In this document: one piece after another, positions 695 through 29,779 of the stretch
How the letters are laid out: each line of letters starts with the position of its first letter
Position numbering within the stretch: position 1 is the first letter of the stretch
Origin: Candidatus Methylomirabilota bacterium
Lineage (GTDB): Bacteria; Methylomirabilota; Methylomirabilia; Rokubacteriales; CSP1-6
DNA: 64,000 nt
Assembly (NCBI GenBank): GCA_036556905.1
Contig: DATBIM010000053.1
Coordinates: forward strand, 63,118 to 127,117
Direction of reading: 5' to 3'
Made by a program: the position numbers and the translations under genes
Notes under the pieces: model-generated
Seen by the model: the letters and a program-made list of their open reading frames with translations, nothing else
The model's database searches: none
What the model was told of the DNA's origin: nothing

Positions 695-3023
695 CGCTGA
701 CCGAGCCGGCCGTGCCGGCGCCGAACGTGTAGCGGCCGTGAAGCTGCCAGCGGCCGCCTTCCGTCCGCTGGTTGAATCTTCGGGTCGTGCTGCCCCCGGT
801 GTGGGTGACGGTGATCGGGACCTGACTGGAGCGGGTCTGGCTGGCCGTCCACCAGACGTACACGTCATAGGTGCCGGCGGCGGCGAGACGAGGGGTCCAC
901 CGGTAGGTGTCACGGCGGAATCCGCAGCTCTGAAGCGAGGTTCCCCCGAACGGCCCCGGGGCCGACGAGGTGCACCAGCGCCCGCTGAAGGTCCGGCCCC
1001 CGGCCGTATCCTGAGTGCCGGCCGGAGCGTTGTCCAGGATGAGCTCGCCTCCGGCACTGCTCGGGGTGACTGTGAGGGCGACGGCGGTGACATTGTTGCT
1101 CTCGCTGCTCTCGGCCATGCCCCCGGCAGCATCGGCCTGGGCCAGGACGTGGTAGCTGCCGGCGGTCGTCGTCGCGGGGACCGCCAGGTTGCTCGAGCCC
1201 GAGCTTGCCCCGCCGGCGGCGAGGGCTCCCACCGCCCGGTGGCCCAGGACGACGTCACCAGGGTCGAGGATGGTGTCTCGGGACAGGAAGAATCGGGTCG
1301 TCGAGGCGCCGGAGGCGGCGGTGCCCTGGTTGCGGGTGGTGTCGTTGACGGAGAATCCGGTTCCTACCGCCACCGATCCCGCTGCGGAGAGCGCACTCAC
1401 CACCAGGTCGGGCGCGCCGGCCGGCGACGGCTGGACCGCCAGCGAGGTCGCGGCCACGTTGTTCGTCTCGTTGCTTTCGGTCACCCCAGCCGCCTCGTCG
1501 GTCTGCACGATGATGAAGTGGGTCCCGGCGGCGGTTGAGGCCGGGATCGTCAGAGGTTGAGACAACGAGACGGTAGCGTTCGGCGCCAGCGGGGTGGACC
1601 GCGGCGCGGTCGTCATCAGGAGGATATCCGCAGCGTCGAGGGTCGTGTTGGTCGACAGGTAGATCCGCTCGCCATAGGTGCCGCTGACCGCGAGCGTGCC
1701 CCGATTGGCGACCGCATAGCTGACCGTGGCCCCGGCGCCGGGAGCGAGGCTGCTCGGGGACACCGCAAGGGCCTCGACCACGAGGTCGGAACCGCCTGCG
1801 GCGGCCCCTGGATAGACGAAGCGGAGGCCTGCGGAGTCGTCGGCCCGGAGGCTGGCACCCCGCCCGTCGAAGTGGGCCCGCGGGGCCATGGTGGCGTCGG
1901 AATCCGACGAGTGCCCGAGTCCGAGCACGTGGCCGAGCTCGTGCGTCACCACTTCGGCCAGATTGGCGAAGCGCTCGTAGAACCCGCAGCCGTCCCATCC
2001 TCGGTTCACCACGACGTCGCCCTCGACGATCCGGTTGAAGGTCTGGCCGTTGACCATCCGCCGCTGGGCGCTGGTGCTGAAGTAGCCACCCATCGCGAGC
2101 ACACCGCCGCAGTTCACGGGATCGTCCATCTGGCCCAGAGGATCGCCGAAGGAGACGGTGCTCACCCCATCCCGCCGGTGGCCCACGGTCGTCGTGGTCC
2201 CCCCGTCGTGATACCGGAAGCTGGAGCCGCTCACCGAGCTCCAGGCGGCATAGGCGGCTCCGACCTGATCGAATCCACGGCCCGGCGCCCGCGGCTCGCC
2301 CTCGGCGTTGAGCAACATCGTCACCGGCGCGCCGGTGTCGGGTTCGAACCAGCGCGACGGCGTGCCCAGGAAGGTGAAGGATTCCTGGGCCTCGGTGGTT
2401 CCCACCGGTGCGGGAGGCGTGAAGAGTGGTGCCGTTGCCCCGCGCAGACCGAGCCGCCCGCGCACGGCGCCCCGGATCCGGTCCCGGATGTCACGCAAGC
2501 GATGCAGCTCGTCAGTCGTGGGCCTGGCGCCCGAGCCGCGTGGGGTCGTGACCACCACGCCGGCCGGCGTCTGTCGGCGCGCGAACCGCTCGCCCGTGTG
2601 CAGGTCGGTCAGGATCGAGAACTTGCCGAGGTACAGGTGGGCGGTGCGCAGCGTTCCGTCACCGCGGGTCGTGAGGAAGAGCAGGACTCGCTCGCCCAGC
2701 CGAAACTCCGGGCTGCCCTCCACACGCGACTCGACGTCACCGACCTTGCCCCCCAGCTGGCGGATCGTCAGCTCGGGCGTGGGGATCGCCCCCTTGAGGA
2801 CCTCGTCGAGCCTGACCGTGATATCGGTGAGGATCTGGCCCTGCCCGGGATCCCAGTGGCTACTGATGTCGATGACCTCACCGATGACAATCAGCCGGGC
2901 CTGCTCGGTGAGGAGCCCCTCGGGCAGCACACCCACGACGGTCGCCTCCACGGACGGGGCCCCCGCGATCGCGATGATCAGGGCGGCCAGGCCCACCGGG
3001 AGCGGGCGGATTCGTCTCAGCAC
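636..3023 (-). CDS. secreted zinc metalloprotease (matrixin/metzincin-like) with two CARDB repeats and a golvesin-C-like C-terminal domain
   Basis: Zinc site HELGHVLGLGHSSDSDATM (HExxHxxGxxH plus Met-turn). Two about 110-aa repeats begin (S/P)DLVV and end ESNE(T/S)NN, which is CARDB-like. The C-terminus ends ...GQAAADAVRFVRIH. The likely start is GTG at 3023, 5 nt after GGAGGA, which gives the signal peptide VLRRIRPLPVGLAALIIAIAGAPSVEA. The ORF itself extends to 3113. Confidence 0.9.
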   Translation of the reverse strand: MLRRIRPLPVGLAALIIAIAGAPSVEATVVGVLPEGLLTEQARLIVIGEVIDISSHWDPGQGQILTDITVRLDEVLKGAIPTPELTIRQLGGKVGDVESRVEGSPEFRLGERVLLFLTTRGDGTLRTAHLYLGKFSILTDLHTGERFARRQTPAGVVVTTPRGSGARPTTDELHRLRDIRDRIRGAVRGRLGLRGATAPLFTPPAPVGTTEAQESFTFLGTPSRWFEPDTGAPVTMLLNAEGEPRAPGRGFDQVGAAYAAWSSVSGSSFRYHDGGTTTTVGHRRDGVSTVSFGDPLGQMDDPVNCGGVLAMGGYFSTSAQRRMVNGQTFNRIVEGDVVVNRGWDGCGFYERFANLAEVVTHELGHVLGLGHSSDSDATMAPRAHFDGRGASLRADDSAGLRFVYPGAAAGGSDLVVEALAVSPSSLAPGAGATVSYAVANRGTLAVSGTYGERIYLSTNTTLDAADILLMTTAPRSTPLAPNATVSLSQPLTIPASTAAGTHFIIVQTDEAAGVTESNETNNVAATSLAVQPSPAGAPDLVVSALSAAGSVAVGTGFSVNDTTRNQGTAASGASTTRFFLSRDTILDPGDVVLGHRAVGALAAGGASSGSSNLAVPATTTAGSYHVLAQADAAGGMAESSESNNVTAVALTVTPSSAGGELILDNAPAGTQDTAGGRTFSGRWCTSSAPGPFGGTSLQSCGFRRDTYRWTPRLAAAGTYDVYVWWTASQTRSSQVPITVTHTGGSTTRRFNQRTEGGRWQLHGRYTFGAGTAGSVSVSDANGQAAADAVRFVRIH

Positions 3024-3275
3024 CGGGCATCCTCCTCGTGCACAGGGCGCGGGTCGGGAGCTTCGCTGCCCGGGAGGAGCATCAAAGATCGCGCCAGAGG
3101 CGTGGCCGGCCAAACGTGCGACCCGGCACGGCGCGGCTGGGGCCGGTTGCCATTCCGCCCCTCACGCTGGCACCGCCCGTCAGCCCGCCAACACGGATGC
3201 GGACGCCGTGGCCTTCCGCGTTCGCAGTGGCAGCGTTACACTGGGGCGACCGTCGGACCGGGAGGACATGATCGG

Positions 3276-4490
3276 ATGCCAATCACGCTGCGACTGCCGA
3301 ACGCCCAGGGAGCGCTGGCCCCCTACACCCTGACCGGAAGGACCCCCCTCCCACCGCCCCCGGGTCCCATCACCAGCCGCGTGGCGTTCGCCGCCGTGCA
3401 CGTCGTCGCCGACCCGCTCGCCGACATCGATCCGACGCAGGACGTGGCCCTCGACTGGGAGGCCACGCTGGCGTATCGGCGCTACGTCTGGTCGCTGGGG
3501 CTCGCCGTCGCCGAGGCGATGGACACCGCCCAGCGCGGCATGGGCCTGCCCTGGGCCACGGCCCGGGAGCTGATCCGGCGCACCGTGGCCGAGGCCCGGA
3601 CGAACCCGGGGGCCGTGGTGTTCTCCGGCGCCGGCACCGACGACCTGCCGCCCTCGTCGCGGGTCAGCATCGCCGATGTCGACCGAGCCTACGAGGAATC
3701 GTGCAGCTTCATCGAGTCGGTGGGAGGCCGCATCATCCTGATGGCGAGTCGGGCCCTGGCCGCCTGCGCCAAGGGACCCGACGACTACGTGAAAGTCTAC
3801 GGCCGCATCCTGGCGCAGGTGCAGCAGCCGGTGATCATTCACTGGCTCGGCGACATGTTCGACCCTGCGCTGGCCGGGTACTGGGGCTCACGCGACCTGG
3901 ACCAGGCCGCCGCGACGCTGCTCGCCGTGATCGGCGAGCACGCCGCTCGGGTCGACGGCGTCAAGGTCTCCCTGCTCGACCAGCGCCGGGAGATCGCCCT
4001 GCGCCGCCGCTTGCCGGCCGGCGTGCGGATGTACACCGGGGACGATTTCGACTATCCCACCACCATCGCCGGCGACGAGCACGGCCACAGCGATGCCCTG
4101 CTGGGAATCTTCGACGTCATCGCGCCCCTGGCCTCGGCGGCGCTGCACGCGCTGGACGGTGGGGACCGCGCCCGCTTCGACGAGCTGCTGGCGCCGACCC
4201 TGCCGCTCTCGCGCCACGTGTTCGGCGCGCCCACCCGGTTCTACAAGACCGGGGTGGTGTTCGCCGCCTACCTCAACGGCCACCAGGCGCATTTCCGCAT
4301 GGTCGGTGGCCTGGAGAGCGCGCGCTCGGTCGTGCACCTGAGCCGGCAGTTCGTCCTGATGGACCAGGCGGGTCTGCTCCACGACCCCGCGTTAGCCGCC
4401 GCGCGGATGCGGAGTGTGCTGGCCACCGCCGGTATCGACGAGCCGCCTCAGAACCAGCGGGCCTTGTCGACCACGTTGCGCAAGGGCTGA
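3276..4490 (+). CDS. DUF993 family protein (TIM-barrel, DHDPS-like)
   Basis: ATG at 3276, in frame with ORF 1557..4490. The block VAFAAVHVVADPLADIDP...LDWEATLAYRRYVWSLGLAVAEAMDTAQRGMGLPW is what I recognise as DUF993. The ORF part upstream of 3276 is R/G/P-rich shadow on the antisense of the protease gene. Confidence 0.75.
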   Translation: MPITLRLPNAQGALAPYTLTGRTPLPPPPGPITSRVAFAAVHVVADPLADIDPTQDVALDWEATLAYRRYVWSLGLAVAEAMDTAQRGMGLPWATARELIRRTVAEARTNPGAVVFSGAGTDDLPPSSRVSIADVDRAYEESCSFIESVGGRIILMASRALAACAKGPDDYVKVYGRILAQVQQPVIIHWLGDMFDPALAGYWGSRDLDQAAATLLAVIGEHAARVDGVKVSLLDQRREIALRRRLPAGVRMYTGDDFDYPTTIAGDEHGHSDALLGIFDVIAPLASAALHALDGGDRARFDELLAPTLPLSRHVFGAPTRFYKTGVVFAAYLNGHQAHFRMVGGLESARSVVHLSRQFVLMDQAGLLHDPALAAARMRSVLATAGIDEPPQNQRALSTTLRKG

Positions 4491-9324: not shown

Positions 9325-9807
9325 GTGACGCGCCGACTCCTGGGTCTGGTGGCGCTTTCGCTGGTGCTGGCCGCGTGCGCCTCGGCCAGGGCAGTGGAGC
9401 AGCGGACGACCCAGGGGCCCACCGCCGAGCAGTTCTGGATGCTGCGCATGATCGAGGCCAATGGCCGGGAGCCGAACTTCGACGAACGCCGACACTGGCA
9501 GAACCAGATCGACGATGACATCGCGCGCTACCTGCGCAGCCATCCCGAGGCCGCCAGTAGCCTGGAGGTCTCCACGTTCCGATTCTTCCGTCGCACCACG
9601 GTGGGGATGACCAAGGAGCAGATCGTGATCCTGCTGGGTCCTCCCGAGACGACCACCACCGAACCCGCCGAGATGGAAAAGCTGGCCCGCCAGTACTGGC
9701 CGGCGGTCAAGGCGCGCGCCAAGGAGGCCTGGACCTATCCGCTGGGCTGGCGTTTCTACTTCGCCGGCGACCGGGTCGTCGATATCACGCAGTACCTGTC
9801 CCGCTGA
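9325..9807 (+). CDS. lipoprotein (hypothetical, BamE/SmpA-like C-terminus possible)
   Basis: GTG start. Signal peptide with lipobox: MTRRLLGLVALSLVLAAC. Confidence 0.8.
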   Translation: MTRRLLGLVALSLVLAACASARAVEQRTTQGPTAEQFWMLRMIEANGREPNFDERRHWQNQIDDDIARYLRSHPEAASSLEVSTFRFFRRTTVGMTKEQIVILLGPPETTTTEPAEMEKLARQYWPAVKARAKEAWTYPLGWRFYFAGDRVVDITQYLSR

Positions 9808-9824
9808 TGATCCAAGGAGGCCAT

Positions 9825-10085
9825 ATGCCGGAGCTGGAGGAGAAAGTCATCGCGAGCTGGACGTACCGGAAGGGCGCGCTCGATCCCAAGACGGCGTCGC
9901 TCTGCTATCTGGCCGCCAACCTGGCCGTCGGCAACACCCACTGAGCCAAGCGCGACCTGGCGGGCGCCAGGACAGCCGGAGCCACCGAGGCGGAATTGCG
10001 GGAAGCGATCAGCTTTGCCATCCGGGCCAACGCGGCCCGGGCCCACGCCGACATCCTGAAGGTGTGGACCGATGGCGGACGTTAG
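9825..10085 (+). CDS. carboxymuconolactone decarboxylase/AhpD-like protein with in-frame TGA at 9942..9944 (candidate selenocysteine)
   Basis: The ATG at 9825 lies 4 nt after AAGGAGG. The product is 39 aa + TGA + 46 aa = 86 aa, the size of one CMD domain. LDPKTASLCYLAANLAVGNTH-U-AKRDLAGARTAGATEAELREA aligns without gaps to my recollection of the CMD consensus (ldpktreLialavaaalgCpyClaaHtraalkaGateeei), placing TGA on the second Cys of CxxC. GC3 is about 92% before the TGA and about 83% after it. The stop at 10083 overlaps the next gene's ATG at 10072. Both halves are under 60 aa, so they are absent from the ORF track. Confidence 0.6.
9956..9971 (+). promoter_or_regulatory. SECIS-like hairpin 11 nt downstream of the in-frame TGA
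   Basis: CCTGGC-GGGC-GCCAGG: a 6-bp GC-rich stem with a G-rich 4-nt loop. The stem starts 11 nt after the TGA, and the apical loop starts 17 nt after it. Confidence 0.45.
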
Positions 10086-10383
10086 GCTGACGGCGGCATT
10101 CTCCACCGTCCCCACGGGCGAGCAAGAGGAGATCAAGCGCGTCCTGGTCGAGACCGTGGAGCAGCTGGCCCGTGACGATCGGACGTTCGCCACGGCCCGG
10201 ATCGTCTTCACCGAGTCCGACGAGCGGTGCGGTCTCACCGCCGAGCTCGACGGCGTGAAGCGGGAGGGCGTGCCGTTGCAGCTCGACATCGAGCAACTGG
10301 AAGACGCCAAAACCTCGGCCGGGGCCCGGGCCCAGCTCAAGGAGGCCCTGCGCCTGTACTTCCGCCGGGTGCTCGGCAAGTGA
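10072..10383 (+). CDS. hypothetical protein
   Basis: 103-aa ORF with high GC3 and balanced composition. The start overlaps the end of the AhpD-like ORF. The stop overlaps the GTG of the next gene (GTGA). Confidence 0.7.
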   Translation: MADVRLTAAFSTVPTGEQEEIKRVLVETVEQLARDDRTFATARIVFTESDERCGLTAELDGVKREGVPLQLDIEQLEDAKTSAGARAQLKEALRLYFRRVLGK

Positions 10384-11087
10384 CCGACGACGACGGCCAG
10401 CTCCTGTTCGCCTGGCGGGACTGTCTGTTCCGAGTCCCCGATCGGGTGCAGTCGCCCAAGGCCGGATCGCTGTTCTTCTGTCGCCACCTGACCGTGCGGC
10501 GCGGCGAGCGCGTGCTGGAGATCGGTGCCGGGCTGGGGCTGGCTGCGGTGATGGCGGCCCGTGCCGGCGCTCACGTCGTCGCCACCGATATCGTGCCGGA
10601 GGCGGTCGACGCGATCCGCGCCAACGCCGCCCTCAACGGGGTGACGGTGGATGCCCGCCTGGGCGACGGCTACGCGCCGGTGGCCGGTGAGCGCTTCGAT
10701 CTCGTCTGCACCAACGCCCCGCAGATGCCGACCCCGCCGGGCCGGGGTCGCCCGGATGCCCAGGCGGCGGCCGACAACGGTGGCCTCGACGGCTGGGAGA
10801 TCCTGGACCGTGTCATCGAGGGCGCCACCAGCCATCTGCGCCCGGGGGGCCGGCTCGTCTTCTCTCTGTTCGCGTTCCTGGGCCGCAAGACCGCGTTCGC
10901 CAAGCTGGAGAGACAGGGTCTCCTGCCGACGGTGGTGGCCAGCGAGACGCAGGCGTTCCCGCGTTTGGGTTACGAGCGCCTCGACCACCTGCGCAGTCTC
11001 GATGGCGAGGGGACGCTGCCGGCCGGCATGCCCGCGACCGTCGAGCGTCTCATCATCCAGGGTACCCGGCCATGCTCCGGCGGCTGA
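10380..11087 (+). CDS. class I SAM-dependent methyltransferase (HemK/small-MTase-like)
   Basis: SAM motif I VLEIGAGLGLAAVMAA, acidic loop VVATD, and a motif IV variant, CTNAPQMP. GTG at 10380 overlaps the upstream stop. Confidence 0.85.
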   Translation: MTDDDGQLLFAWRDCLFRVPDRVQSPKAGSLFFCRHLTVRRGERVLEIGAGLGLAAVMAARAGAHVVATDIVPEAVDAIRANAALNGVTVDARLGDGYAPVAGERFDLVCTNAPQMPTPPGRGRPDAQAAADNGGLDGWEILDRVIEGATSHLRPGGRLVFSLFAFLGRKTAFAKLERQGLLPTVVASETQAFPRLGYERLDHLRSLDGEGTLPAGMPATVERLIIQGTRPCSGG

Positions 11088-13884: not shown

Positions 13885-14403
13885 TCACGGGCCCGGCGGG
13901 GCCTCGCGGAGCGCCTCGTCGAGGATCGCCGGCAAGCGTGTCACCGCGGACTCGCCATGGAGACGGGCCACCAGCTCGCCCTTGAGATCCATGACGACGG
14001 TGTACGGGGTGCCTTTGAAACCGAAGCGGTTGCCGATGGTGAGCTGGGGATCGAGCGCGATCGGATAGGCCACTTTCTGGGCCCGCATGAACTTGCGGGT
14101 GTCGGCCACCGTATCCTGCACGTGCAGCGCGACAAACTCCACGTTCTGACCGCGATAGCGGTCGACCAGGCGCCCGAACGCCCGTGATTCCTTGGCGCAG
14201 GGCCGGCAGTAGGAGGCCTGGAAGCGCACCACCAGCACCTTCTTGCCGGTGAGCTCACGGGAGTCGACGACACGGGAGAAGTTGAGGAGCTCGACGCGGA
14301 GACCCGGCGCATCCGGTGGGCTGTCCGCTCGACCGGGGCCGGGGGCGGTGCCCACCGCCAGCGCGAGCGCGACGGCCAGCACGAGCCGATGGCGCGGACC
14401 CAC
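13885..14403 (-). CDS. TlpA-like thiol:disulfide oxidoreductase (redoxin)
   Basis: Signal/anchor VGPRHRLVLAVALALAVGTAPG, thioredoxin motif FQASYCRPCAKE, and GTPYTVV. GTG start at 14403. Confidence 0.85.
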   Translation of the reverse strand: MGPRHRLVLAVALALAVGTAPGPGRADSPPDAPGLRVELLNFSRVVDSRELTGKKVLVVRFQASYCRPCAKESRAFGRLVDRYRGQNVEFVALHVQDTVADTRKFMRAQKVAYPIALDPQLTIGNRFGFKGTPYTVVMDLKGELVARLHGESAVTRLPAILDEALREAPPGP

Positions 14404-14421: not shown

Positions 14422-17328
14422 GTGCGCGACCTCGAGCACGAACTTCGCAGAGTCATCGCCGGCGACGTCCGCTTCGACCGAACCTCCCGGCTCCTCTACG
14501 CCACCGACGCCTCGATGTACCAGGTCGAGCCGATCGGAGTGGTCATCCCCCGCGAGGCCGGTGACGTGCAGGCCGCCGTCGAGGTGGCCCGTACGTTCGG
14601 CGCGCCGCTCTTGCCTCGGGGCGGCGGCACCTCGCTCACCGGCCAGACCGTCAACCATGCCGTCGTGCTCGACTTCTCGGCTCACCTCAACCGCGTGCTG
14701 GAGGTCAACGCCGACGAACGGTGGGCTCGGGTGGGCCCCGGGCTGGTGCAGGATGAGCTGAATCACCACGTACGCCCGCTGGGCTTGCTCTTCGGGCCCG
14801 ACACGTCGACCTCCAACCGCGCGACCCTGGGCGGGATGATCGGCAACAATTCCGGAGGCTCCCACTCGATCGCCTATGGCCTCACCGTGGACCACGTGCT
14901 GGAGATCACGACACTCCTGGCCGATGGCACCCGGGTCGTCTTCGGCGAGCTCACCGCCGCCGAGTTCGAGGCCAAGTGTCGGCTCTCGGGCCGCGAAGGC
15001 GACATTTATCGGGCAGTCGCGAAGCTGCGGGACACGTATGCCGATGAGATTCGCGCCCGCTACCCCAGCCACTGGCGCCGCGTGGCCGGCTACAACCTCA
15101 ACGAGCTGGTCGGCGTCAGCATCAAGCCTGGCTCGCCCGCCGGCGGTGGAAACGGCGCGCCCCGGCCGCTCAGCATGGCCCGGCTCCTGGTCGGCTCCGA
15201 GGGAACGCTGGTGACGGTTGTGGACGCCAAGGTGCGGCTGATGCCCCGGCCCCGGGCCACCGCGCTCGACGTCATCCACTTCGCGGAGATGCAGGAAGCG
15301 CTGGAGGCCTCCCAGTCAATTCTAGAATCCGGGCCCTACGCGGTCGAGCTGACCGACAAGATGATCCTGGATCTGGCGCGCGAGAACATCGAGCAGCGGC
15401 AGCGCGCGGCGTTCATCCAGGGCAATCCCGCCGCCATCCTGATGGTGGAGTACGCGGGCGACAGCGAAGCCGAGGTCCGGGCCAAGGTCGAGGCCCTGGA
15501 GGCGCGTCGGCAGCGCGAGCGGTTCGGCTATGCCGCGCACATCACCTATGACGGAGCGGCCCAGCAGTCCATCTGGAAGCTCCGCAAGGCGGGGCTGGGG
15601 CTGCTCCTGGGCATGAAGGGTGACCGCAAGCCCATCGCCTTCGTGGAGGACACCGCCGTCGAGCCCCGCCACCTGGCCAAGTTCGTGGCAAGGTTCCGGG
15701 AGATTTTCGCGCGCCACGACACGGAGGGCGCCTATTACGGCCACTGTTCGGTGGGCTGCCTGCACATCCGCCCCGTCATCAATCTCAAGACCGCCCGGGG
15801 GCTCGAGCAGGTACGGGCCATCGCCGAGGAGATCAACGACCTCGTGCTCGAGTTCGGCGGGACGATCTCCAGCGAGCATGGTGACGGTCGGGCCCGCAGC
15901 CCCTTCCTGGAGCGCATGTACGGCCCGACCCTCATGCGGGCGTTTCGCGAGCTCAAGCAGGCCTTTGACCCCGACAACCGCATGAACCCCGGGAACCTCG
16001 TGCAGAGCCCCGGCATCACGGAGCACATGCGCTACGGGGCGCAGTACACGACCTGGCAGCCCACCACGCTGCTGGATTTCGGAGACCAGGGCGGCTTCGC
16101 TGCGGCCGTCGAGATGTGCAACGGCGTCGGGGTCTGTCGCAAGACGCTGGAGGGCACGATGTGCCCCTCGTACATGGCGACCCGGGACGAGGAGCACTCC
16201 ACCCGCGGCCGGGCCAATGCCCTGCGCGCTGTGCTCTCCGGGCAGATGCCGGCTACCGAGTTCACGGGCCAGCGCCTCTACGAAGTGATGGACCTCTGCC
16301 TGGAGTGCAAAGGCTGCAAGGCCGAGTGTCCGTCCAATGTGGACATGGCCAAGCTCAAGTACGAGTTTCTGCATCACTACTACCGGGCCAACGGCCTGCC
16401 CCTGCGCAACCGGCTCTTCGGTCACCTGGCCCGCCTGAACGCGCTGGGCGCCCTGGCCCCCGGGCTGGTGAACCGGCTCTCCCGTCTGGCTCCGAGCCGG
16501 TGGCTGCTGGAGAAGCTCGCAGGCATCGACCGCCGCCGGCCCCTGCCGCCCCTGGCCACCCAGACGTTCACCGACTGGTTCGCCCGCCGACCCCCGCCGG
16601 CCGCGGCGCCCCGGGGCGAGGTCGTCCTCTTCCACGACACGTTCGTGACCTACAATGCGCCCGAGATCGGACAGGCCGCCGTCGGCTTACTGGAGGCTGC
16701 CGGGCACCGTGTCGTGCTCGTCGACCGTAAGTGTTGCGGTCGCCCGCTCATCTCCAAGGGGCTGCTGGACCAGGCCCGTGAGCATGCGGCCTGGAACGTG
16801 GCGCGCCTGGCGCCGTACGCGAGCCGCGGCATTGCCGTCGTCGGGCTCGAGCCCTCGTGCCTGTTGACCCTCCGCGACGAGTCGGTGGATCTGCTTCGTA
16901 CGGCCGAAGCCCGAACCGTGGCTCGCCAGAGCTTCCTGCTCGAGGAGTTCCTCACCCGCGAGCGCAGTCGCGGCCTGCGCCTGCCGTTCAAGGGCAACGG
17001 ACGCCCGGCGCTCCTGCACGGCCACTGCCACCAGAAAGCGCTGGTCGGCACGGGCCCGACGGTGGCCGCGCTGCGCTGGGCTGGCTTCGAGGTCAGCGAG
17101 GTCGATTCGGGCTGCTGCGGCATGGCCGGATCGTTCGGGTTCGAGCGCGAGCACTACGACGTCTCGGTCTGGCTCGGAAATCGACGACTGGCGCCCGCGG
17201 TGAAGGCCACACCGGCCGACGCCGAGATCGTGGCGCCCGGCATCTCGTGCCGGCAGCAGATCGAGCACCTGGCCGGCCGGCGGGCCAAGCACCCCGCCGA
17301 AGTGCTGTGGGAGGCGCTCTCCGCCTGA
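14422..17328 (+). CDS. FAD-binding oxidase fused to (Fe-S)-binding CCG domains (YdiJ / GlcD-GlcF fusion type)
   Basis: FAD-PCMH domain (PRGGGTSLTGQ), ferredoxin-like clusters CNGVGVCRK...MCPSY and CLECKGCKAECPSN, and two CCG motifs (KCCGRP, GCCGMAGSFG). An alternative ATG at 14389 would overlap the divergent gene. Confidence 0.9.
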   Translation: MRDLEHELRRVIAGDVRFDRTSRLLYATDASMYQVEPIGVVIPREAGDVQAAVEVARTFGAPLLPRGGGTSLTGQTVNHAVVLDFSAHLNRVLEVNADERWARVGPGLVQDELNHHVRPLGLLFGPDTSTSNRATLGGMIGNNSGGSHSIAYGLTVDHVLEITTLLADGTRVVFGELTAAEFEAKCRLSGREGDIYRAVAKLRDTYADEIRARYPSHWRRVAGYNLNELVGVSIKPGSPAGGGNGAPRPLSMARLLVGSEGTLVTVVDAKVRLMPRPRATALDVIHFAEMQEALEASQSILESGPYAVELTDKMILDLARENIEQRQRAAFIQGNPAAILMVEYAGDSEAEVRAKVEALEARRQRERFGYAAHITYDGAAQQSIWKLRKAGLGLLLGMKGDRKPIAFVEDTAVEPRHLAKFVARFREIFARHDTEGAYYGHCSVGCLHIRPVINLKTARGLEQVRAIAEEINDLVLEFGGTISSEHGDGRARSPFLERMYGPTLMRAFRELKQAFDPDNRMNPGNLVQSPGITEHMRYGAQYTTWQPTTLLDFGDQGGFAAAVEMCNGVGVCRKTLEGTMCPSYMATRDEEHSTRGRANALRAVLSGQMPATEFTGQRLYEVMDLCLECKGCKAECPSNVDMAKLKYEFLHHYYRANGLPLRNRLFGHLARLNALGALAPGLVNRLSRLAPSRWLLEKLAGIDRRRPLPPLATQTFTDWFARRPPPAAAPRGEVVLFHDTFVTYNAPEIGQAAVGLLEAAGHRVVLVDRKCCGRPLISKGLLDQAREHAAWNVARLAPYASRGIAVVGLEPSCLLTLRDESVDLLRTAEARTVARQSFLLEEFLTRERSRGLRLPFKGNGRPALLHGHCHQKALVGTGPTVAALRWAGFEVSEVDSGCCGMAGSFGFEREHYDVSVWLGNRRLAPAVKATPADAEIVAPGISCRQQIEHLAGRRAKHPAEVLWEALSA

Positions 17329-19620: not shown

Positions 19621-20573
19621 AGGATCTTCTCCGGCGAATCCGTCGTCGCCACTTGATTCTTTCCTCCCCGCTTGGCCGAGTAGAGCGCCTCGTCGGCGGC
19701 TCGCACCAGCTCCTCGGCGGTGGCCGCGTCGTCGTCGGGCAGGCTGGCCAGCCCGAAACTGGCCGTGATGGGCTTGCCGTGGCTGAAGGGGTGGGTGGAG
19801 ATCACCTGGCGGATGCGGTCGGCGTAGAGACGAGCGCCGGCCCGCGACGTCTCCACGAGGAGGACGACGAACTCGTCGCCCCCGTAGCGGGCCACCACGT
19901 TGATGCCGCGGGAATGCTTGACGAGGATCTGGGCCACGTCGCGCAGGGACTCATCGCCCACCGCGTGCCCGAGCTCGTCGTTGACGGCCTTGAAGCCGTC
20001 CAGGTCCATCAGGACCACCGACACCGGATGGTTGAATCGCCGGTGCCGCTGCATCTCCTCCTCCAGGCGGATAGAGAAGAACCGGCGATTGTAGAGACCG
20101 GTCACCTCGTCCTTGAAGGACGTCTCCTTGAGGCGGGTGTTGGTATTCTCCAGCTCCTTGTAGGCGGCGTCGAGGCGAGAGGCGAAGCTGTTGATCTCGG
20201 CGGCCTGCTGCTCGATCGTCTCCAGCATCCGGCCGATGGTGTGCATGAGCGTGCCGGCCTCATCACGGCGCTGGACCAGATCGCCCAGGCGTTCCTCCTC
20301 CCCGAGCATTCGGGCCAGGCGCGCCACGGTGCGGCCCATGTCCCACAGCATGTAGCCGCCGGCGAAGATGGCCAACACGGTGAAGAGGAAGAGCCCCAGG
20401 AGCCCGAAGAAGCCGGCGCTGTCGAGCGGGCTCAGGTGGGGAAGCACGAAGCGGTGGGTGACGTAGCCGAGCACCAGCAGCGGGATGACCGCGGAGAGGC
20501 CGAGGGCGAGAAAGACCCTGTGACTGAGCCGCTGGCCTGCTTCCGTCACGCTGGATGCGGGTTTAGACGGCAT
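19617..20573 (-). CDS. membrane-anchored diguanylate cyclase (GGDEF)
   Basis: ATG at 20573. Two TM segments, a coiled coil, then the GGDEF domain (RYGGDEFVVLL, with an RxxD I-site-like region upstream). Confidence 0.9.
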   Translation of the reverse strand: MPSKPASSVTEAGQRLSHRVFLALGLSAVIPLLVLGYVTHRFVLPHLSPLDSAGFFGLLGLFLFTVLAIFAGGYMLWDMGRTVARLARMLGEEERLGDLVQRRDEAGTLMHTIGRMLETIEQQAAEINSFASRLDAAYKELENTNTRLKETSFKDEVTGLYNRRFFSIRLEEEMQRHRRFNHPVSVVLMDLDGFKAVNDELGHAVGDESLRDVAQILVKHSRGINVVARYGGDEFVVLLVETSRAGARLYADRIRQVISTHPFSHGKPITASFGLASLPDDDAATAEELVRAADEALYSAKRGGKNQVATTDSPEKIL

Positions 20574-20714
20574 ATCGGCATTATTTCGGGAGCCGCCGCA
20601 CCGTGTCAACGTCCCCGGCTCGGGGAGCCCAACCCCCCGGAAAGACTCGACAAGGCCCCCGGCGCCCTCCGGTTGCGCCGGGCCACGGGTCAGTGTCAGA
20701 ATCGCCTTCGAACG

Positions 20715-20951
20715 ATGCTCGTCACCCCTGACAAGAAGCTCGACTGCATCGGGCTGTTCTGTCCGATGCCCGTGCTCAAGGTTCGCGAGGCGGTCACGGC
20801 CATGGCCGTGGGCCAGGTGCTCGAGATGCTCGCCGATGACCCCGCCTCCGAGGCGGACCTCAAGAGCTGGTCCGCCCGCACGGGTCACCAGCTCATGGCG
20901 GTGGACAAAGATGGGCCCGTCTTCCGCTTTCTCGTCCGAAAGACCAGGTAG
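20715..20951 (+). CDS. tusA: sulfurtransferase TusA family protein
   Basis: 78 aa. The active-site motif LDCIGLFCPMPVLK (CPxP) is present. Confidence 0.85.
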   Translation: MLVTPDKKLDCIGLFCPMPVLKVREAVTAMAVGQVLEMLADDPASEADLKSWSARTGHQLMAVDKDGPVFRFLVRKTR

Positions 20952-22110
20952 CGGCGGCGCCGTCACTCGGGTCTACCTGGACTACGGCGGCTTCACGCCC
21001 GTCGATCCGCGAGTGGTTGCCGTCATGCGGCCCTTCCTGGAAGGGGGGGCCGGCAATCCGGCGGCGCCGCATTCGCTGGGCCTGGAGGCGCGGGCCTCGT
21101 TGGACGGCGCCCGGGCCAAGCTGGCCCGCCTCTTCGGTGGCGCGTCGGCCGGTGTGATCTTCACCGCCAGCGCCACCGAGGCGAACAATCTGGCCGTCAA
21201 GGGCATCGCCCAGCGTGGGCCGGCGCGGCACGTCGTCACCTCGGCCGTCGAGCACGTCTCCGTCCTGAACTGCTGCCGGGATCTCGAGAAGCACGGCTAC
21301 CCCGTGACCTACGTCGGCGTGGACGCCGAGGGTCGGGTCGACCCCGCTGCCGTCGACCGGGCCCTGCGGCCCGAAACGGCGCTGGTCTCGATCATGGCCG
21401 CCAACGGAGAGATCGGCGCCGTGCAGCCGTTGCGCGAGATCGGCCGGCTTACGCGGAACCGCGGCGTGCCTTTTCATGTCGACGCCGTTCACGCGGCCGG
21501 CCGGCTGCCGCTTTCCGTCGAGGAGTGTGGCATCGACCTGCTCACGCTCTCCTCCAACGATCTCTACGGGCCACCGGGCGCCGGCGCGCTGTGGGTACGG
21601 CCGGAGGTGAAGCTGACCCCGCTCATCCTCGGCGGCGGCCAGGAGCGGGGCTACCGCGCGGGGACGGAGAACCTGCCGGCCATCGTGGGCATGGGCGTGG
21701 CCGCCGAGCTGGCCCGGATCGAGCGCGCCGGTGAGGCGGGCCGGCTGGCCGGCTTGCGCGACCGCCTCCTCGAGGGTCTGCTGAACCGCGTGGCGGGCGC
21801 TCGCCTCACCGGACCACGCGGCCAGGCGCGCCTGCCCCACCACGCCAGCATCGTCGTCACCGGTGTCAAGGCCGAGGCGTTGCTCCTCGAGCTCGATCTC
21901 CGCGGAGTGGCGGTCTCCTCGGGCTCGGCCTGCACGACGATGACCGGCGAGCCCTCTCACGTGCTGCGGGCCATTGGCTGCGACCGCGAGGCCGCCGAAG
22001 GCTCGCTCTGCTTCACGCTGGGGCGGTGGACCACGGCGGCCGAGGTCGACTTCACGGTGGACATCCTGCCGGGCATCGTCGAGCGCCTGCGTCTTCTGGC
22101 CCCCGGATAG
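20911..22110 (+). CDS. cysteine desulfurase-like protein (IscS/NifS family) lacking the PLP-binding lysine
   Basis: VYLDYGGFTP, SAVEH, FHVDAVH, RAGTENLP and catalytic-loop SSGSACTT are conserved. The SxHK motif reads SSND (21550..21561). The only canonical in-frame start is ATG at 20911, which overlaps tusA by 41 nt. Confidence 0.85.
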   Translation: MGPSSAFSSERPGSGGAVTRVYLDYGGFTPVDPRVVAVMRPFLEGGAGNPAAPHSLGLEARASLDGARAKLARLFGGASAGVIFTASATEANNLAVKGIAQRGPARHVVTSAVEHVSVLNCCRDLEKHGYPVTYVGVDAEGRVDPAAVDRALRPETALVSIMAANGEIGAVQPLREIGRLTRNRGVPFHVDAVHAAGRLPLSVEECGIDLLTLSSNDLYGPPGAGALWVRPEVKLTPLILGGGQERGYRAGTENLPAIVGMGVAAELARIERAGEAGRLAGLRDRLLEGLLNRVAGARLTGPRGQARLPHHASIVVTGVKAEALLLELDLRGVAVSSGSACTTMTGEPSHVLRAIGCDREAAEGSLCFTLGRWTTAAEVDFTVDILPGIVERLRLLAPG

Positions 22111-24839: not shown

Positions 24840-25514
24840 TCAGCCCGAGGGCGCCATGACGGCCGCGCGCAGACGCGCATCCAGCCGCCAGCCGGCAACG
24901 AGACGGCCACTCTCGGTTCCGGCGCCTTCGGCGAGCAGGCACCGGAGATCATCGCGGTTATCCACGTCGAGCCCGAGCCCCCGCAGATGCAGGACGCGGG
25001 GCGCCAGCCCGTGCTGGCGGGCGACGTTCAGATGGTTGTCGAACGAGGGCTCACCGAAGACGAGTGGCATGACGTCGGGCGGAATCAGGGCCGCGCCGTT
25101 CGTGCCCCGTCCGGAGCGGGACGGCGTGAACACCACGGTGGGGGCGACCGACTCGGCCGCCTGGACGAGGAGGGCCAGCTCGCTGCTGGTGGTGCAGGGG
25201 ACGTCACCGGGCACAGTGAGGAAAAGCCTGGCGCGGCCACGCGCCGCCTGGGCCTGGGCCAGGGCCACCGCGGCGGTGTGTCCATGGCTCGCCGGCTCGC
25301 CGAGAACTTCGGCACCGGCCCGCCGGGCGATGGCGCTGACCTCGGCGTCTCGGGTGACGACCCAGATCGCGTCGAGGCCGACGCCGGCCAGAGCGCCAAG
25401 CACGTCGGTCAGCATCGCTCGGGCCAGCTCCACACGTTCGGCGGGTGTCAGCACCGTGATCAGGCGCTGCTTGGCGGCGGCGAGATCTTTGACGGGCACC
25501 GCGGCCACCCTCAT
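24840..25514 (-). CDS. cofC: 2-phospho-L-lactate (or related) guanylyltransferase
   Basis: MRVAAVPVKDLAAAKQRL...ML.DVL... and the PGDVP motif. ATGA coupling with cofD. Confidence 0.85.
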   Translation of the reverse strand: MRVAAVPVKDLAAAKQRLITVLTPAERVELARAMLTDVLGALAGVGLDAIWVVTRDAEVSAIARRAGAEVLGEPASHGHTAAVALAQAQAARGRARLFLTVPGDVPCTTSSELALLVQAAESVAPTVVFTPSRSGRGTNGAALIPPDVMPLVFGEPSFDNHLNVARQHGLAPRVLHLRGLGLDVDNRDDLRCLLAEGAGTESGRLVAGWRLDARLRAAVMAPSG

Positions 25515-26458
25515 ACCCCGGGGGCCTCCAGCACCCGGCGAGCCAGCGCCACTTCACGCTCGTGATCAGGCATCAGGATCTCGGTGAGGACCGGGGTGAC
25601 ACCCTGCGCGAGGAGGCCGGGGACGCAGGCCCGGTCGCCGGAATCGATCAGCAGCACGCCCAGCCAGGGCGCGTAGGCCTGGGCCACGCCCACCGGCGAC
25701 ACCGGCATGCCCCGCACGCGCATCAACTGAGCGGCCGGCCCACTCACCGCAGTGCCGCTGACGATCGGGCTCACGCCCACGATCGGCGCCCGGGCCGCCG
25801 TCAGCGCCGCCGGTATCCCGGGGACCGCGAGCACCGGGCCGATCGACGTCACCGGGTTCGATGGACAGATCACGATCAGCTCCGCCTCGGCGATCGCCTC
25901 CACGACGCCAGGTGCCGGCCGGGCCCGGGGCGCCCCCGCGTAGGCGACCTCGAGAACCTCTACGAGCGCTTTCTCACGCACGAAGTATTCCTGAAACGTG
26001 AGCCAGTCGTCTCCGGCGGCCGTGGCCCCCGCGACCCGGATTCGCGTCCGCACGGGATCGTCGCTCATGGGCAGGACGCGGGCGTCGACGCCGAGGCTCC
26101 GGGCGATGTCGGCGGTCACTATCGAGAGTGGCGCCCCCGCCCCCAGCGCCGCGGTCCGGGCGAGATGGGTGGCCAGATCCCGGTCGCCGAGATTGAACCA
26201 CGTCTCGGCTCCCAGCTCGGCCATGGCGCCCAGGCAGCGGAACGTGTCGCCGGCCAGCCCCCACCCGCGCGCCGTGTCGAGCCGTCCGGCCAGAGCGTAC
26301 GTGATGGTATCCAGGTCCGGTGAGACGTACAGGCCCCAGATCTCGGCGTCGTCGCCGGTGTTGCCGATCACCGTCAGATCGCGCGGCGCCAGGCACGCGG
26401 CCAGCCCGCGCAGGAGCTTGACCGCGCCGGTGCCACCGGCGATCGCCGTCACCTTCAC
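25511..26458 (-). CDS. cofD: 2-phospho-L-lactate transferase
   Basis: MKVTAIAGGTGAVKLLRGL...VIGNTGDD.EIWGLYVSPDLDT..Y.LAG. Confidence 0.9.
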   Translation of the reverse strand: MKVTAIAGGTGAVKLLRGLAACLAPRDLTVIGNTGDDAEIWGLYVSPDLDTITYALAGRLDTARGWGLAGDTFRCLGAMAELGAETWFNLGDRDLATHLARTAALGAGAPLSIVTADIARSLGVDARVLPMSDDPVRTRIRVAGATAAGDDWLTFQEYFVREKALVEVLEVAYAGAPRARPAPGVVEAIAEAELIVICPSNPVTSIGPVLAVPGIPAALTAARAPIVGVSPIVSGTAVSGPAAQLMRVRGMPVSPVGVAQAYAPWLGVLLIDSGDRACVPGLLAQGVTPVLTEILMPDHEREVALARRVLEAPGV

Positions 26459-26462
26459 CGGG

Positions 26463-27050
26463 TCACTCGCGGGGCGGCTCGCGCAGGGTCCAGAGCGCGC
26501 TGCCCCCGCGCCAGGCGTAGAGTCCTACCCCGGCCCGACCCGCGAGCGCAACCGGCAGCGTGCTCTCCGGCACAGGAATGAAGCCGAAGCGGATCCACAC
26601 GCGGTCCAGGCCCTGAGGGCGGGCGAAGATCACGTCGGCACCGAGCGCGCTACCGTGATCGAGGGCGGCCGTCACCAGCTGGGCCGCGATTTCCAGGGGC
26701 TCCTCCCCGGCGACGACGACGGGGCCGTGGAGGAACATCGCGCGTCCCTCGCACTCGGCAAGTATCGCGCCGACCAGGCGCTCGCCCTCCGCGGACGGGG
26801 CCGCGAACGCGCCCCAGGCCAGGGCCAGACGGGCCGGCTCGGGCCACGGGAGCGCGGCAAAGTCGAACAGCGGGCGCGCGGCCGCGCTATCCGACAGAGG
26901 GCGATAGCCGACCCCCTGCCAGACGCGGGGGACGGTTGCGTGAGCCAGTGATGGGGTCGGCGCCAGCGCGACCCCCGGAGCTCGAGCCGGTTCCGCTGTC
27001 GGCGCCGACCCGTTGCCGGGACGGCGCCGTCGCGGGCTACTTCTTCCCAA
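26463..27050 (-). CDS. GNAT-like acetyltransferase (hypothetical)
   Basis: The C-terminal 130 aa have a GNAT-like beta4-alpha3 region (MFLHGPVVVAGEEPLEIAAQLVTAALDHGSALGA) and end F.RFGF. TTG at 27050 is the only canonical start, and it overlaps the hup stop by 14 nt. Confidence 0.55.
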   Translation of the reverse strand: MGRSSPRRRRPGNGSAPTAEPARAPGVALAPTPSLAHATVPRVWQGVGYRPLSDSAAARPLFDFAALPWPEPARLALAWGAFAAPSAEGERLVGAILAECEGRAMFLHGPVVVAGEEPLEIAAQLVTAALDHGSALGADVIFARPQGLDRVWIRFGFIPVPESTLPVALAGRAGVGLYAWRGGSALWTLREPPRE

Positions 27051-27324
27051 GCACGGAGTCCTTCAGGCTCTTGGTCAGCCGGAACTTGCAGACGCGCTTG
27101 GCCGGGATCTTGATGGGCTCGCCGGTCTGGGGATTGCGTCCCATGCGCGCCTTGCGGTTGGAGAGAACGAGCTTCCCGAAGCCCGGGAGAACGAAGCCGT
27201 TCTTGGCCTCCTTGCACGCGAGCGTGACCAGCTCGTCGAAGAGTTCACCGACCTGCTTCTTCGAGAGGTTGCTCTTCTGCGCGAGGTGGGACATGGTCGC
27301 CGACTTCGTCATCATCTTCGCCAC
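27037..27324 (-). CDS. hup: HU family DNA-binding protein
   Basis: LSKKQVGELFDELVTL...GFGKLVLSNRKARMGRNPQTGEPIKIPAKRVCKFRLTKSLKD (HU arm and signature). The gene has noticeably lower GC. Confidence 0.9.
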   Translation of the reverse strand: MAKMMTKSATMSHLAQKSNLSKKQVGELFDELVTLACKEAKNGFVLPGFGKLVLSNRKARMGRNPQTGEPIKIPAKRVCKFRLTKSLKDSVLGKK

Positions 27325-27393
27325 GGGCGGCCTCCTGTTCGTCGGGTGAAAGTGAGAGTGACGTGAATTAATACCACAGGCCGCGAACTCCGG

Positions 27394-28636
<1,243 letters not shown>

Positions 28637-28659
<23 letters not shown>

Positions 28660-29779
28660 GGGACTCCTTGACGAGGCCGTCGGCGTCGATGAGATCCGCG
28701 ATCCGCGGCCGGAGTGGCTCGGCGACGAACTCGGGCCGCCGCGTGAACTCCGGATAGATCGCCAGGCGCTCGCGCAGGACGAAGCCTTCGCGCTCGGTCG
28801 CCCGGCGGAGCTCGGTGATGCGCGGCCACGGCTTCTCGGGATTGATGTGGTCGAGGGTGAGCGGCGAGATGCCGCCCCAGTCGTTCAGGCCCGCCGCCAG
28901 CAGGCGGGCGTAGGCGGCCGGCGAGAGATTGGGCGGCGCCTGGATGTTCACGTCCGGGCCCAAGACGAGCCGGGCCACCGCGACCGTGCCGAGCAGATCA
29001 TCGAACGACGGTTCCGGAGCGTCGCGCATGGGGATGGCGGGCTTGGCCCGGAAGTTCTGGATGATGACCTCCTGGATGTGGCCGTACCGCTCGTGGAGCT
29101 CGCGGATCGCCACCAGGGCATCGACCCGCTCCCGCGGCGTCTCCCCGATGCCGATGAGGATCCCGGTGGTGAAGGGGATCTGGAGCTTGCCGGCCAGCTC
29201 GATCGTCTTGAGGCGCCGCGCCGGCACCTTGTCGGGTGCCCGGTCGTGGGCCTGCCCGGGAGCGAGCAGGCGCTCGGCAACCGTTTCCACCATGAGCCCC
29301 ATGCTGACCGTGACCTCACGGAGCGCGGCCAGGTCGCGCTCGCTCATGAGCCCGGGGTTGACGTGGGGCAGGAGCGCCGAATCACGGAGGGTGAGCGCGC
29401 ACATCGACGTCAGATACTGCAGCGTCGTGCGGTGGCCGTGCCGCCGGAGAAATTGGCGGTGTTCGGCGAAGCGGGCCTCCGGCTTGTCACCCAGCGAGAA
29501 CAGCGCCTCCTTGGCGCCGAGCCGCGCCCCGGCCTGGACCAGCGCCAGCACCTCCTCCGGAGTCATGGTGTGGGCGCCGGGCTCGCCGGGGTCGCGGCGG
29601 AAGGTGCAATAGCGGCAGTAGTCCCGACACAACGTGGTGAGCGGGACGAAGACCTTTTTGGAGAAGGTGACGCGCCGACCGCGGCCCCGATCGCGCAACT
29701 CGCCGGCCCGGGCCAGCAGGTCGGGCAGCCCGTCGGCCGGGGTGTCGATCAGGGCGCAGGCCTCCGAATGGCTGATCAT
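28637..29779 (-). CDS. cofG: FO synthase subunit 1 (radical SAM)
   Basis: VTFSKKVFVPLTTLCRDYCRYCTFRR. 23-nt overlap with cofH. Confidence 0.9.

Follow-up and report, generated by a model that had tools for sequence, protein, structure and literature searches.

All catalogued selenoproteins of the AhpD/CMD type carry selenocysteine (Sec) in a C-x-x-U motif (PMC13188914, PMC1088965, PMC2398784), and one small family, GSU3128, has been described as a "distant AhpD homolog" of Geobacter (PMC13188914, PMC1794560). Rokubacteria/Methylomirabilota constitute an abundant, uncultured lineage of soil and groundwater which is suspected of having very large selenoproteomes, and a 2026 review credits one metagenome-assembled genome (MAG) of Methylomirabilota with 63 predicted selenoprotein genes (PMC13188914). 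In our literature search no paper naming GSU3128 was found, nor any paper tying Rokubacteria to the CMD protein described here. The present work concerns a stretch of 64,000 nucleotides from a Candidatus Methylomirabilota bacterium (assembly GCA_036556905.1, contig DATBIM010000053.1, positions 63,118 to 127,117 of the forward strand), hereafter the window, to whose first letter all coordinates refer. Positions 9825-10085 (+) of this window very probably constitute a genuine and functional Sec-encoding gene of the CMD/AhpD family from Candidatus Rokubacteria (Methylomirabilota), as judged from sequence comparison. A preliminary description of the locus had read it as the gene of an AhpD/CMD-family selenoprotein whose Sec occupies the second Cys position of CxxC, accompanied by a selenocysteine insertion sequence (SECIS) hairpin, and the comparative data reported below support that reading.

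The predicted selenoprotein coding sequence comprises 86 codons: an ATG, 38 sense codons, an in-frame TGA (9942-9944, the predicted Sec codon, Sec40), 46 sense codons and, at 10083-10085, a TAG. Its translation is MPELEEKVIASWTYRKGALDPKTASLCYLAANLAVGNTH-TGA-AKRDLAGARTAGATEAELREAISFAIRANAARAHADILKVWTDGGR-TAG, which reproduces the 39 and 46 residues first read on the two sides of the TGA, and the local motif around this codon is G-N-T-H-U-A-K-R-D. The ribosome-binding site mentioned in the preliminary description was present as a Shine-Dalgarno sequence (AAGGAGG, 9814-9820, +) located 4 nt 5' of the ATG, and homologues begin at the equivalent M-[PA]-x-LEEK position, matching the ATG at 9825. The G+C content at third codon positions (GC3), put earlier at 83-92%, was measured as 0.92 5' of the TGA and 0.83 3' of it, against 0.67 and 0.59 when the downstream half was read in its other frames. 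The ATG of the next open reading frame (ORF), at 10072, lies 5' of the distal stop, as had been claimed, and this ORF overlaps the TAG of the CMD gene by 14 nt.

A species-level scan, in which each GTDB species was represented by a single genome, yielded 80 loci, nearly all from Candidatus Rokubacteria/Rokuibacteriota/Methylomirabilota MAGs of many independent projects and some of them on contigs of 0.7-3.3 Mb. The homologous codon was TGA in 79 of these 80 species-representative loci, as in the window, and TGC in the remaining one (L040); the 45-46 codons after the TGA were open and highly conserved in every locus. Homologues consequently aligned across the TGA, the opposite of the failure to align that the preliminary description had named as contrary evidence, and elsewhere they had Cys at the same column. 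Pairwise ratios of nonsynonymous to synonymous substitution rates (dN/dS, or omega; Nei-Gojobori, 600 random pairs) were 0.12 for the 34 codons upstream of the TGA (dS 0.74) and 0.16 for the 41 codons downstream of it (dS 0.50), the latter ratio being also 0.16 when the codons of the hairpin were left out (dS 0.61). The downstream half therefore evolves as a translated protein, and neither a pseudogene nor a sequencing error nor a true stop is compatible with this. The substitution pattern thus shows a gene that is, as judged from its evolution, translated past the UGA and under purifying selection on both sides of it. The weight given to this ORF and its hairpin rests on these comparative data and not on the hairpin of a single sequence.

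A nonsense pseudogene, derived from a Cys-type CMD gene by a TGC to TGA change, or else an error of sequencing or assembly, would be in keeping with the existence of TGC and TGT forms, with the single base that separates TGA from TGC, and with the stub of 39-60 aa that gene callers make of this gene; but the TGA recurred in 79 of 80 species genomes obtained with many independent projects and assembly methods, selection downstream of it was as strong as upstream, a conserved RNA element 3' of the codon decays once the codon encodes Cys, and the few Cys forms are distinct genes. The probability of this explanation is practically nil, and the comparative data effectively refute it.

Searching the protein databases with the joined sequence yielded a handful of full-length proteins of 81-86 aa, about 25 gene calls stopping exactly at ...GNTH and a few fragments starting after the TGA. 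The full-length database proteins P0001-P0004 were real Cys forms (TGC or TGT), and one Cys form was annotated as a CMD family protein (MEX2223993.1). Sec forms were present in public databases only as unnamed stubs of 39-60 aa or as translations under an alternative code; in locus L091, for example, the 39-aa gene call is followed by a 127-nt gap. At exactly the column of the TGA, Cys was encoded by TGC in L040, L081/L082, L084 and L085 and by TGT in L083, the Cys forms additional to L040 coming from metagenomes. TGA ended 17 of the 32 long ORFs in the window, being the commonest ordinary stop, and is therefore not reassigned in this organism. Two further codons were observed at the Sec column, GGA (Gly) in L087 and AGA (Arg) in L088, each on one short metagenome contig; these single-nucleotide variants are either sequencing errors or inactive alleles.

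The SECIS-like hairpin occupies positions 9956-9971 (+), inside the coding sequence. Its arms, CCTGGC (9956-9961) and GCCAGG (9966-9971), form a 6-bp stem (CCUGGC/GCCAGG) closed by a 4-nt loop, GGGC (9962-9965), with a minimum free energy (MFE) of -11.2 kcal/mol, and the distance from the UGA to the loop is 17 nt. In the published consensus of bacterial SECIS (bSECIS) elements (PMC13188914, Fig. 2 legend), the apical loop measures 3-9 nt and has a G at its first or second position, the upper stem has 4-16 bp, the loop is separated from the UGA by 16-37 nt and the MFE is -7.5 kcal/mol or lower; the hairpin agrees with all four bSECIS criteria of that work. A scan of 9700-10200 against Rfam retrieved nothing relevant, only one chance match to a long non-coding RNA (E=0.57).

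Conservation of the hairpin, one of the checks called for in the preliminary description, was seen first in its codons. Among 78 Sec-form genes the stem codons were frozen as GAC (78/78), CTG (78/78), GCC (78/78) and AGG (77/78), whereas elsewhere in the gene the codons for the same amino acids varied (Asp GAT and GAC in a ratio of 39:39, with variable codons for Leu, Ala and Arg as well). Codon bias is no explanation, since the frozen codons are rare in the genes of the window: AGG accounts for 5% of Arg codons and GCA, the majority codon of the loop, for 2.7% of Ala codons. In the pair count (80 sequences, 69 distinct), five pairs of the stem were invariant and one had a single exception, and positions 21 and 24 flanking the loop covaried (A-U 49, G-C 16, G-U 3, other 1); none of 500 shuffles reached the observed 21/24 covariation score or percentage paired. 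Across the 80 sequences aligned, G22 and G23 were invariant and position 24 was mostly U. In L035 and L036, the gene of a DsbA-like selenoprotein from this lineage had a different and longer stem (GGUCCAGC/GCUGGACC), but its closing C-G pair and its AGGU loop were those found in the hairpin of the CMD gene.

The Cys forms provided a second line of evidence. The 3' arm was broken in L040 (AGG to CGC) and L084 (GCC AGG to GCT CGG), the A..C combination in the loop of L081/L082 did not occur in any gene with TGA, and in L083 and L085 the remnant hairpin was intact; SECIS-like remnants that persist once Sec has been converted to Cys are known from earlier work (PMC1794560). In total, the stem was broken in 2 of 5 distinct Cys forms vs. 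1 of 80 Sec forms (Fisher p=0.008). The AGGU loop of the DsbA-like gene and the loss of constraint in the Cys forms support a stem-loop. The aligned loci show UGA and hairpin conserved across the phylum, and they show the UGA and this specific downstream RNA element apparently conserved together and lost together.

The same hairpin would have another role if the TGA were a true stop, that is, if the gene encoded a 39-aa peptide and the region downstream were a regulatory RNA (an attenuator or coupler for the 103-aa gene that follows) or a second small ORF. The GC-rich hairpin does sit between two annotated gene calls, and the 103-aa gene does start near the end of the region; nevertheless, the 46 downstream codons are protein-like, with synonymous changes dominating and the low omega reported above, their GC3 is that of a coding frame (0.83 vs. 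0.59-0.67 out of frame), and they complete a CMD domain which neither half forms alone. An independent downstream ORF would be without start codon or ribosome-binding site, the Cys forms are single uninterrupted genes, and no T run follows the hairpin on its 3' side. Termination at this codon is thus extremely improbable, and decoding of the UGA as Sec is preferred.

The use of Sec in this lineage was examined with a filter for TGAs having coding signal on both flanks. In the whole window two such codons were retained, the TGA of the CMD gene and that at 17326-17328 (+); the latter was rejected as a recoding site, being a mere junction between two neighbouring genes: it ends a 979-aa gene with flavin adenine dinucleotide (FAD)-oxidase, 4Fe-4S and CCG domains, and a TauE/SafE sulfite-exporter gene starts in the same frame at 17344. 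Applied to 1.1 Mb of fetched Rokubacteria DNA, the filter recovered four types of gene with TGA at canonical Sec sites: FdhA (L069:2630(+), NIDSCNRT-U-HAPSVAG; Fdh-alpha model TIGR01591, 656 bits), a DsbA/Rcas_1661-like protein (L035:17220(-) and L036:19712(-), FSDYQ-U-PYC), a peroxiredoxin-like (Prx-like) protein (L040:13803(+) and L081:3351(+), RAHW-U-PYC) and a classical CxxU AhpD-like protein (L037:752(-), VCEY-U-TVAH), whose gene is separate from the CMD gene. Alongside Fdh-alpha, these neighbours were supported by the NCBIfam models NF041057, peroxiredoxin-type models and TIGR01926/NF041238. All four types were located on contigs which also carry the CMD gene, and because of these co-contig genes the lineage can be said to decode Sec; at the level of gene content, the contigs show that the lineage of the CMD gene uses it. 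L040 and L081 have a Cys-form CMD gene but keep the TGA of the Prx-like gene, so that Sec was lost in the CMD protein only.

Two observations on other genes touch the same subject. In the contig of L081, which carries a Cys form, adjoining calls of 147, 122 and 48 aa at 2356-3353 gave a weak match to GRDB (the glycine reductase selenoprotein B family) and may represent a further selenoprotein gene, interrupted by TGA. In the window, a NifS/IscS-type cysteine desulfurase (20524-22110, +) scored 412 bits with TIGR03402 (cut-off 531) and matched the selenocysteine lyase SclA distantly (98 bits, cut-off 525); since it lies below the SclA cut-off, it is not a Sec lyase by membership.

Read-through of the UGA as Trp, Cys or another residue, by a near-cognate or suppressor tRNA or a mischarged tRNA-Sec-like tRNA and with the hairpin as a generic stimulator, would also be translation past this codon, and it draws on the sel genes not found in the window and on pipelines which translate the codon as W. 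These "W" forms are alternative-code calls on TGA, not TGG; L086, a short metagenome contig of this kind and reported as not translating to the query, carries TGA. Furthermore, the natural alternative at this redox CxxC position is Cys, the classical Sec/Cys signature, the spacing of the hairpin and its G-G-U loop are as expected for SelB (PMC13188914, PMC8659212), the loop is common to the DsbA-like UxxC gene of the same lineage, and the co-contig FdhA has TGA at a universal Sec site. Insertion of a residue other than Sec is accordingly highly improbable.

The family assignment was made with the joined 86-aa query, Cys being substituted at the TGA for the Pfam test. The preliminary description had held that both halves form one CMD domain, and indeed only the joined product passed Pfam CMD (PF02627; 40.9 bits, E=2e-10, gathering score 23; residues 14-78 aligned to model positions 16-79), the halves alone remaining sub-threshold (16.2 and 13.7 bits). 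Profile alignment to solved proteins with the AhpD core agreed with the earlier placement of the TGA at the second Cys (G-N-T-H-U against G-C-x-x-C): in 2ouw the TGA column corresponds to the second Cys of C-S-Y-C, and Asn stands at the first. In the genomes examined, the first-Cys column held this Asn almost without exception, the His at -1 of the Sec column was conserved, and an invariant Cys27 lies 13 residues upstream of Sec40. The AlphaFold2 model of the Cys homologue P0002 (predicted local distance difference test score, pLDDT, 86.8) consisted of a short beta hairpin followed by three helices, with the Sec column at the N-terminus of the second helix. Almost all the PDB matches inspected in Foldseek had the CMD/AhpD fold (3bey, 2cwq, 7y4r, 2ouw and M. 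tuberculosis AhpD), with template-modelling (TM) scores of about 0.6-0.68 (best TM about 0.67, probability about 1.0). The predicted model thus shows a product of CMD/AhpD fold in which the recoded residue takes the place of the nucleophilic Cys.

Among the curated families, the best NCBIfam match was NF041047, the GSU3128 family (50.1 bits vs. 110, E=2e-13), with an alignment over almost the full length (residues 4-80 against 3-78 of the 84 model positions). ArsM_AhpD_UU (NF041537; 39.7 bits vs. a cut-off of 510) and MduS (NF045649; 38.1 bits vs. 380) matched through their C-terminal AhpD domain only, and the joined protein had no match at E<=1 to TIGR01926 or NF041238. An exhaustive hidden Markov model search gave 60 relatives at E<=1e-3, which include P0048 (N-G-Y-C), proteins with canonical G-C-x-x-C and a sister clade with G-H-E-H-G and without Cys. 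By these profile comparisons, the protein is a lineage-specific, remodelled member of the small CMD proteins, outside any curated selenoprotein family.

Several observations weigh against the Sec interpretation or parts of it. With respect to the hairpin, which is present exactly 11 nt after the TGA as the preliminary description had stated, a single sequence did not fold better than chance (z-score -1.4, with 18 of 200 shuffles folding as well; z-scores from -1.4 to +0.7 across the single-sequence folds of RNA from the window), and hairpins with GGGC loops recur after open-frame TGAs in junk frames of the window, whose GC content is about 70%. AGGU was the majority loop in the other genomes and the GGGC of the window is a minority form. 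The six stem pairs are invariant and therefore demonstrate constraint at the nucleotide level, not pairing as such. With respect to decoding, no SelA, SelB or SelD was detected when about 30 long ORFs of the window were scanned with Pfam, and tRNA scans of the fetched flanks of 60 related loci detected no tRNA-Sec, so that for this genome the machinery is something we infer. The window itself had no tRNA gene (ARAGORN); 64 kb are a small fraction of a genome, and the absence of sel genes from the window therefore says little. With respect to the protein, it scored below the cut-off of all curated selenoprotein models, and its motif is N-T-H-U instead of C-x-x-C or C-x-x-U. The proton-relay residues of M. 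tuberculosis AhpD are Glu118 and His137; in the alignment with 2ouw the column of the Glu was variable (S/F/Y/A) and that of the His (+4) held an invariant Asp44 instead. As the first Cys and the Glu/His(+4) relay are both missing, the catalytic cycle of AhpD is only an analogy here, and the role of Sec40 as a redox nucleophile is weakened.

With these points taken into account, the following mechanism is proposed for the Sec-encoding gene. During translation, the UGA at 9942-9944 would be decoded as selenocysteine, the hairpin at 9956-9971 acting as a SECIS which would recruit the complex of SelB, GTP and Sec-tRNA(Sec), so that insertion would outcompete termination; from what is established for bacterial Sec insertion, SelB with its Sec-tRNA(Sec) would recognise the AGGU/GGGC loop 11 nt after the UGA. 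The product would be an 86-residue, single-domain protein of AhpD/CMD fold with Sec40 at the second, nucleophilic Cys position and the first Cys replaced by Asn. By analogy with AhpD-type proteins, its most likely role would be that of a small, oligomeric oxidoreductase working through a selenol. The oxidised substrate attacked by Sec40 would be a peroxide or else a partner protein bearing a sulfenate or disulfide; Sec40 would thereby become a selenenic acid or selenenyl-sulfide, to be resolved by a thiol located elsewhere than in the motif. This thiol could be that of Cys27, which is invariant, that of the invariant Cys in the 103-aa partner, or that of a small molecule.

The neighbourhood of the CMD gene was conserved in its order: helicase, 160-aa ORF, CMD gene, 103-aa ORF, methyltransferase, YdjC and ROK kinase. 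Many genomes have an alpha/beta-hydrolase-like gene inserted between the 160-aa ORF and the CMD gene; the 160-aa ORF had no confident family match, only sub-threshold Pfam hints. The 103-aa ORF (10072-10383, +), which is translationally coupled to the CMD gene, was directly downstream in 70 of 71 loci with a match, and the methyltransferase was co-located downstream in 65 loci and YdjC in 66; of the 69 loci whose downstream sequence was long enough, at least 56 had both the 103-aa ORF and the methyltransferase adjacent. In most of 64 loci the 103-aa ORF started between -14 and +22 nt from the CMD stop, -14 being the commonest distance. The 103-aa protein is a probable operon partner of the selenoprotein gene. 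It contains an invariant block, ESDERCGLTAELDG, and had no match in Pfam or NCBIfam. The one invariant Cys of this block, Cys53, was present in 63 of the 64 sequences aligned, the other having a gap at that column. About 2,000 database clusters of it were found, the source-given names shown being all "hypothetical protein" and several of them from Rokubacteria/Methylomirabilota MAGs. Its AlphaFold2 model (pLDDT 77) had a beta-alpha-beta-beta-beta-alpha topology, with weak HPF/YfiA-like matches (TM about 0.45, root-mean-square deviation about 6 Å).

The S-adenosylmethionine (SAM)-dependent methyltransferase of the HemK2/MTQ2 family (10380-11087, +; boundaries taken from gene calls on near-identical contigs) has a GTG start which overlaps the stop of the 103-aa ORF, and scored 96.2 bits with TIGR00537 (cut-off 87) and E=8e-14 with Pfam MTS. 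TIGR00537 is the model of the release-factor glutamine methyltransferases of archaeal/eukaryotic type (HemK2/MTQ2), and the N-A-P-Q of this protein probably occupies the position of the N-P-P-Y motif. It is conceivable that this operon (a single-selenol AhpD fold, a dedicated 103-aa partner and a HemK2/MTQ2-type methyltransferase) founds a phylum-wide, uncatalogued selenoprotein family constituting a new selenium-dependent pathway; in such a pathway the N-T-H-U-A-K-R-D site, lacking a vicinal Cys and a Glu/His relay, would not be that of a peroxide-defence thiol oxidoreductase. We consider this unlikely and retain a selenol-based oxidoreductase of CMD/AhpD fold as the probable product.

Other genes of the window were noted. 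An AhpC-TSA-family gene at about 13885-14382 (-), considered as an AhpC partner, turned out to encode a TlpA-like CxxC protein: it has a thioredoxin fold, an apparent N-terminal signal sequence and the motif YCRPC, and lies 3.3-6 kb downstream. It is on the opposite strand and was found in 31 of 51 loci, and the link as a partner is therefore weak; it looks like conserved neighbourhood with no obvious partner role. A 410-aa antisense ORF (9756-10988, -), rich in Arg, Ser, Pro and Gly, covers the whole locus; such ORFs are typical of the spurious long ORFs of high-GC DNA, and it was not considered a gene. A cluster for coenzyme F420 biosynthesis extends over 25511-29779 (-), with CofD (25511-26458) and two radical-SAM genes (27394-28659 and 28637-29779), one of them of CofH/MqnC type.

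AhpD/CMD-type selenoproteins, bacterial SECIS elements inside ORFs, remnant SECIS elements in Cys forms and selenoprotein-rich Methylomirabilota were all known, and current understanding is not overturned by this locus. What is new is modest: a phylum-wide N-x-x-U subfamily outside every curated model, whose Sec forms are in public databases only as truncated "hypothetical" stubs and which belongs to a conserved operon. For annotation, it is a concrete example of selenoprotein loss, with stubs for this gene vs. about 2,000 clean clusters for the neighbouring 103-aa gene; for the selenoproteome of Rokubacteria/Methylomirabilota, it is a conserved and lineage-specific addition. The frozen SECIS and its decay in the Cys forms make up a natural dataset on the SelB-binding requirements of this lineage, and the N-x-x-U site within a conserved operon raises a tractable question on the chemistry of a single-selenol AhpD fold.

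Compared with the SECIS of E. coli fdhF, the hairpin has the same 11-nt spacer after the UGA, an upper hairpin at nt 15-30 (nt 15-31 in fdhF; PMC8659212) and, in the same numbering, G22, G23 and U24 in the apical loop (PMC8659212). It differs from it in that U17 is not bulged and is predicted to pair with A28, that no conserved lower stem was seen, that C-G instead of A-U closes the loop and that, in a minority of genomes including that of the window, the loop is GGGC instead of AGGU.

Regarding the protein, the closest solved structures were T. thermophilus TTHA0727 (2cwq), 3bey and RclX (7y4r), with a profile E of 1e-4 and TM of about 0.67. TTHA0727 also has the second Cys only (motif G-S-E-A-C); unlike the protein of the window, the three are Cys proteins, they share about 30% identity with it and their own functions are poorly defined. 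MduS and ArsM_AhpD_UU, the second and third best NCBIfam families, recall the methyltransferase gene located two genes downstream here, but in them the methyltransferase is fused at the N-terminus whereas the 86-aa protein is unfused; the neighbouring methyltransferase was rejected as an unfused MduS/ArsM-AhpD counterpart, since it is of HemK2/MTQ2 type and its match to the selenoprotein methyltransferases was only that of a generic SAM fold (about 23-25 bits).

The GSU3128 family (NF041047) resembles the protein in its single AhpD-like domain of about 84 aa and in the Sec at the second position of the CxxC equivalent; it differs in lineage and motif, being C-x-x-U in Geobacter (PMC13188914) and N-T-H-U in Rokubacteria, and with 50 bits, far under the cut-off of 110, the protein is therefore no member of NF041047. 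The AhpD-like selenoproteins of ocean metagenomes (AhpD-like 1, COG2128/TIGR01926; AhpD-like 2/CMD, PF02627) and NF041238 have superfamily and PF02627 in common with it (PMC1088965, PMC2398784, PMC13188914). Like the protein described here, these CxxU AhpD-like/CMD proteins have Sec at the second Cys of the redox motif, Cys homologues and a SECIS inside the ORF just downstream of the codon; unlike it, they keep the first Cys.

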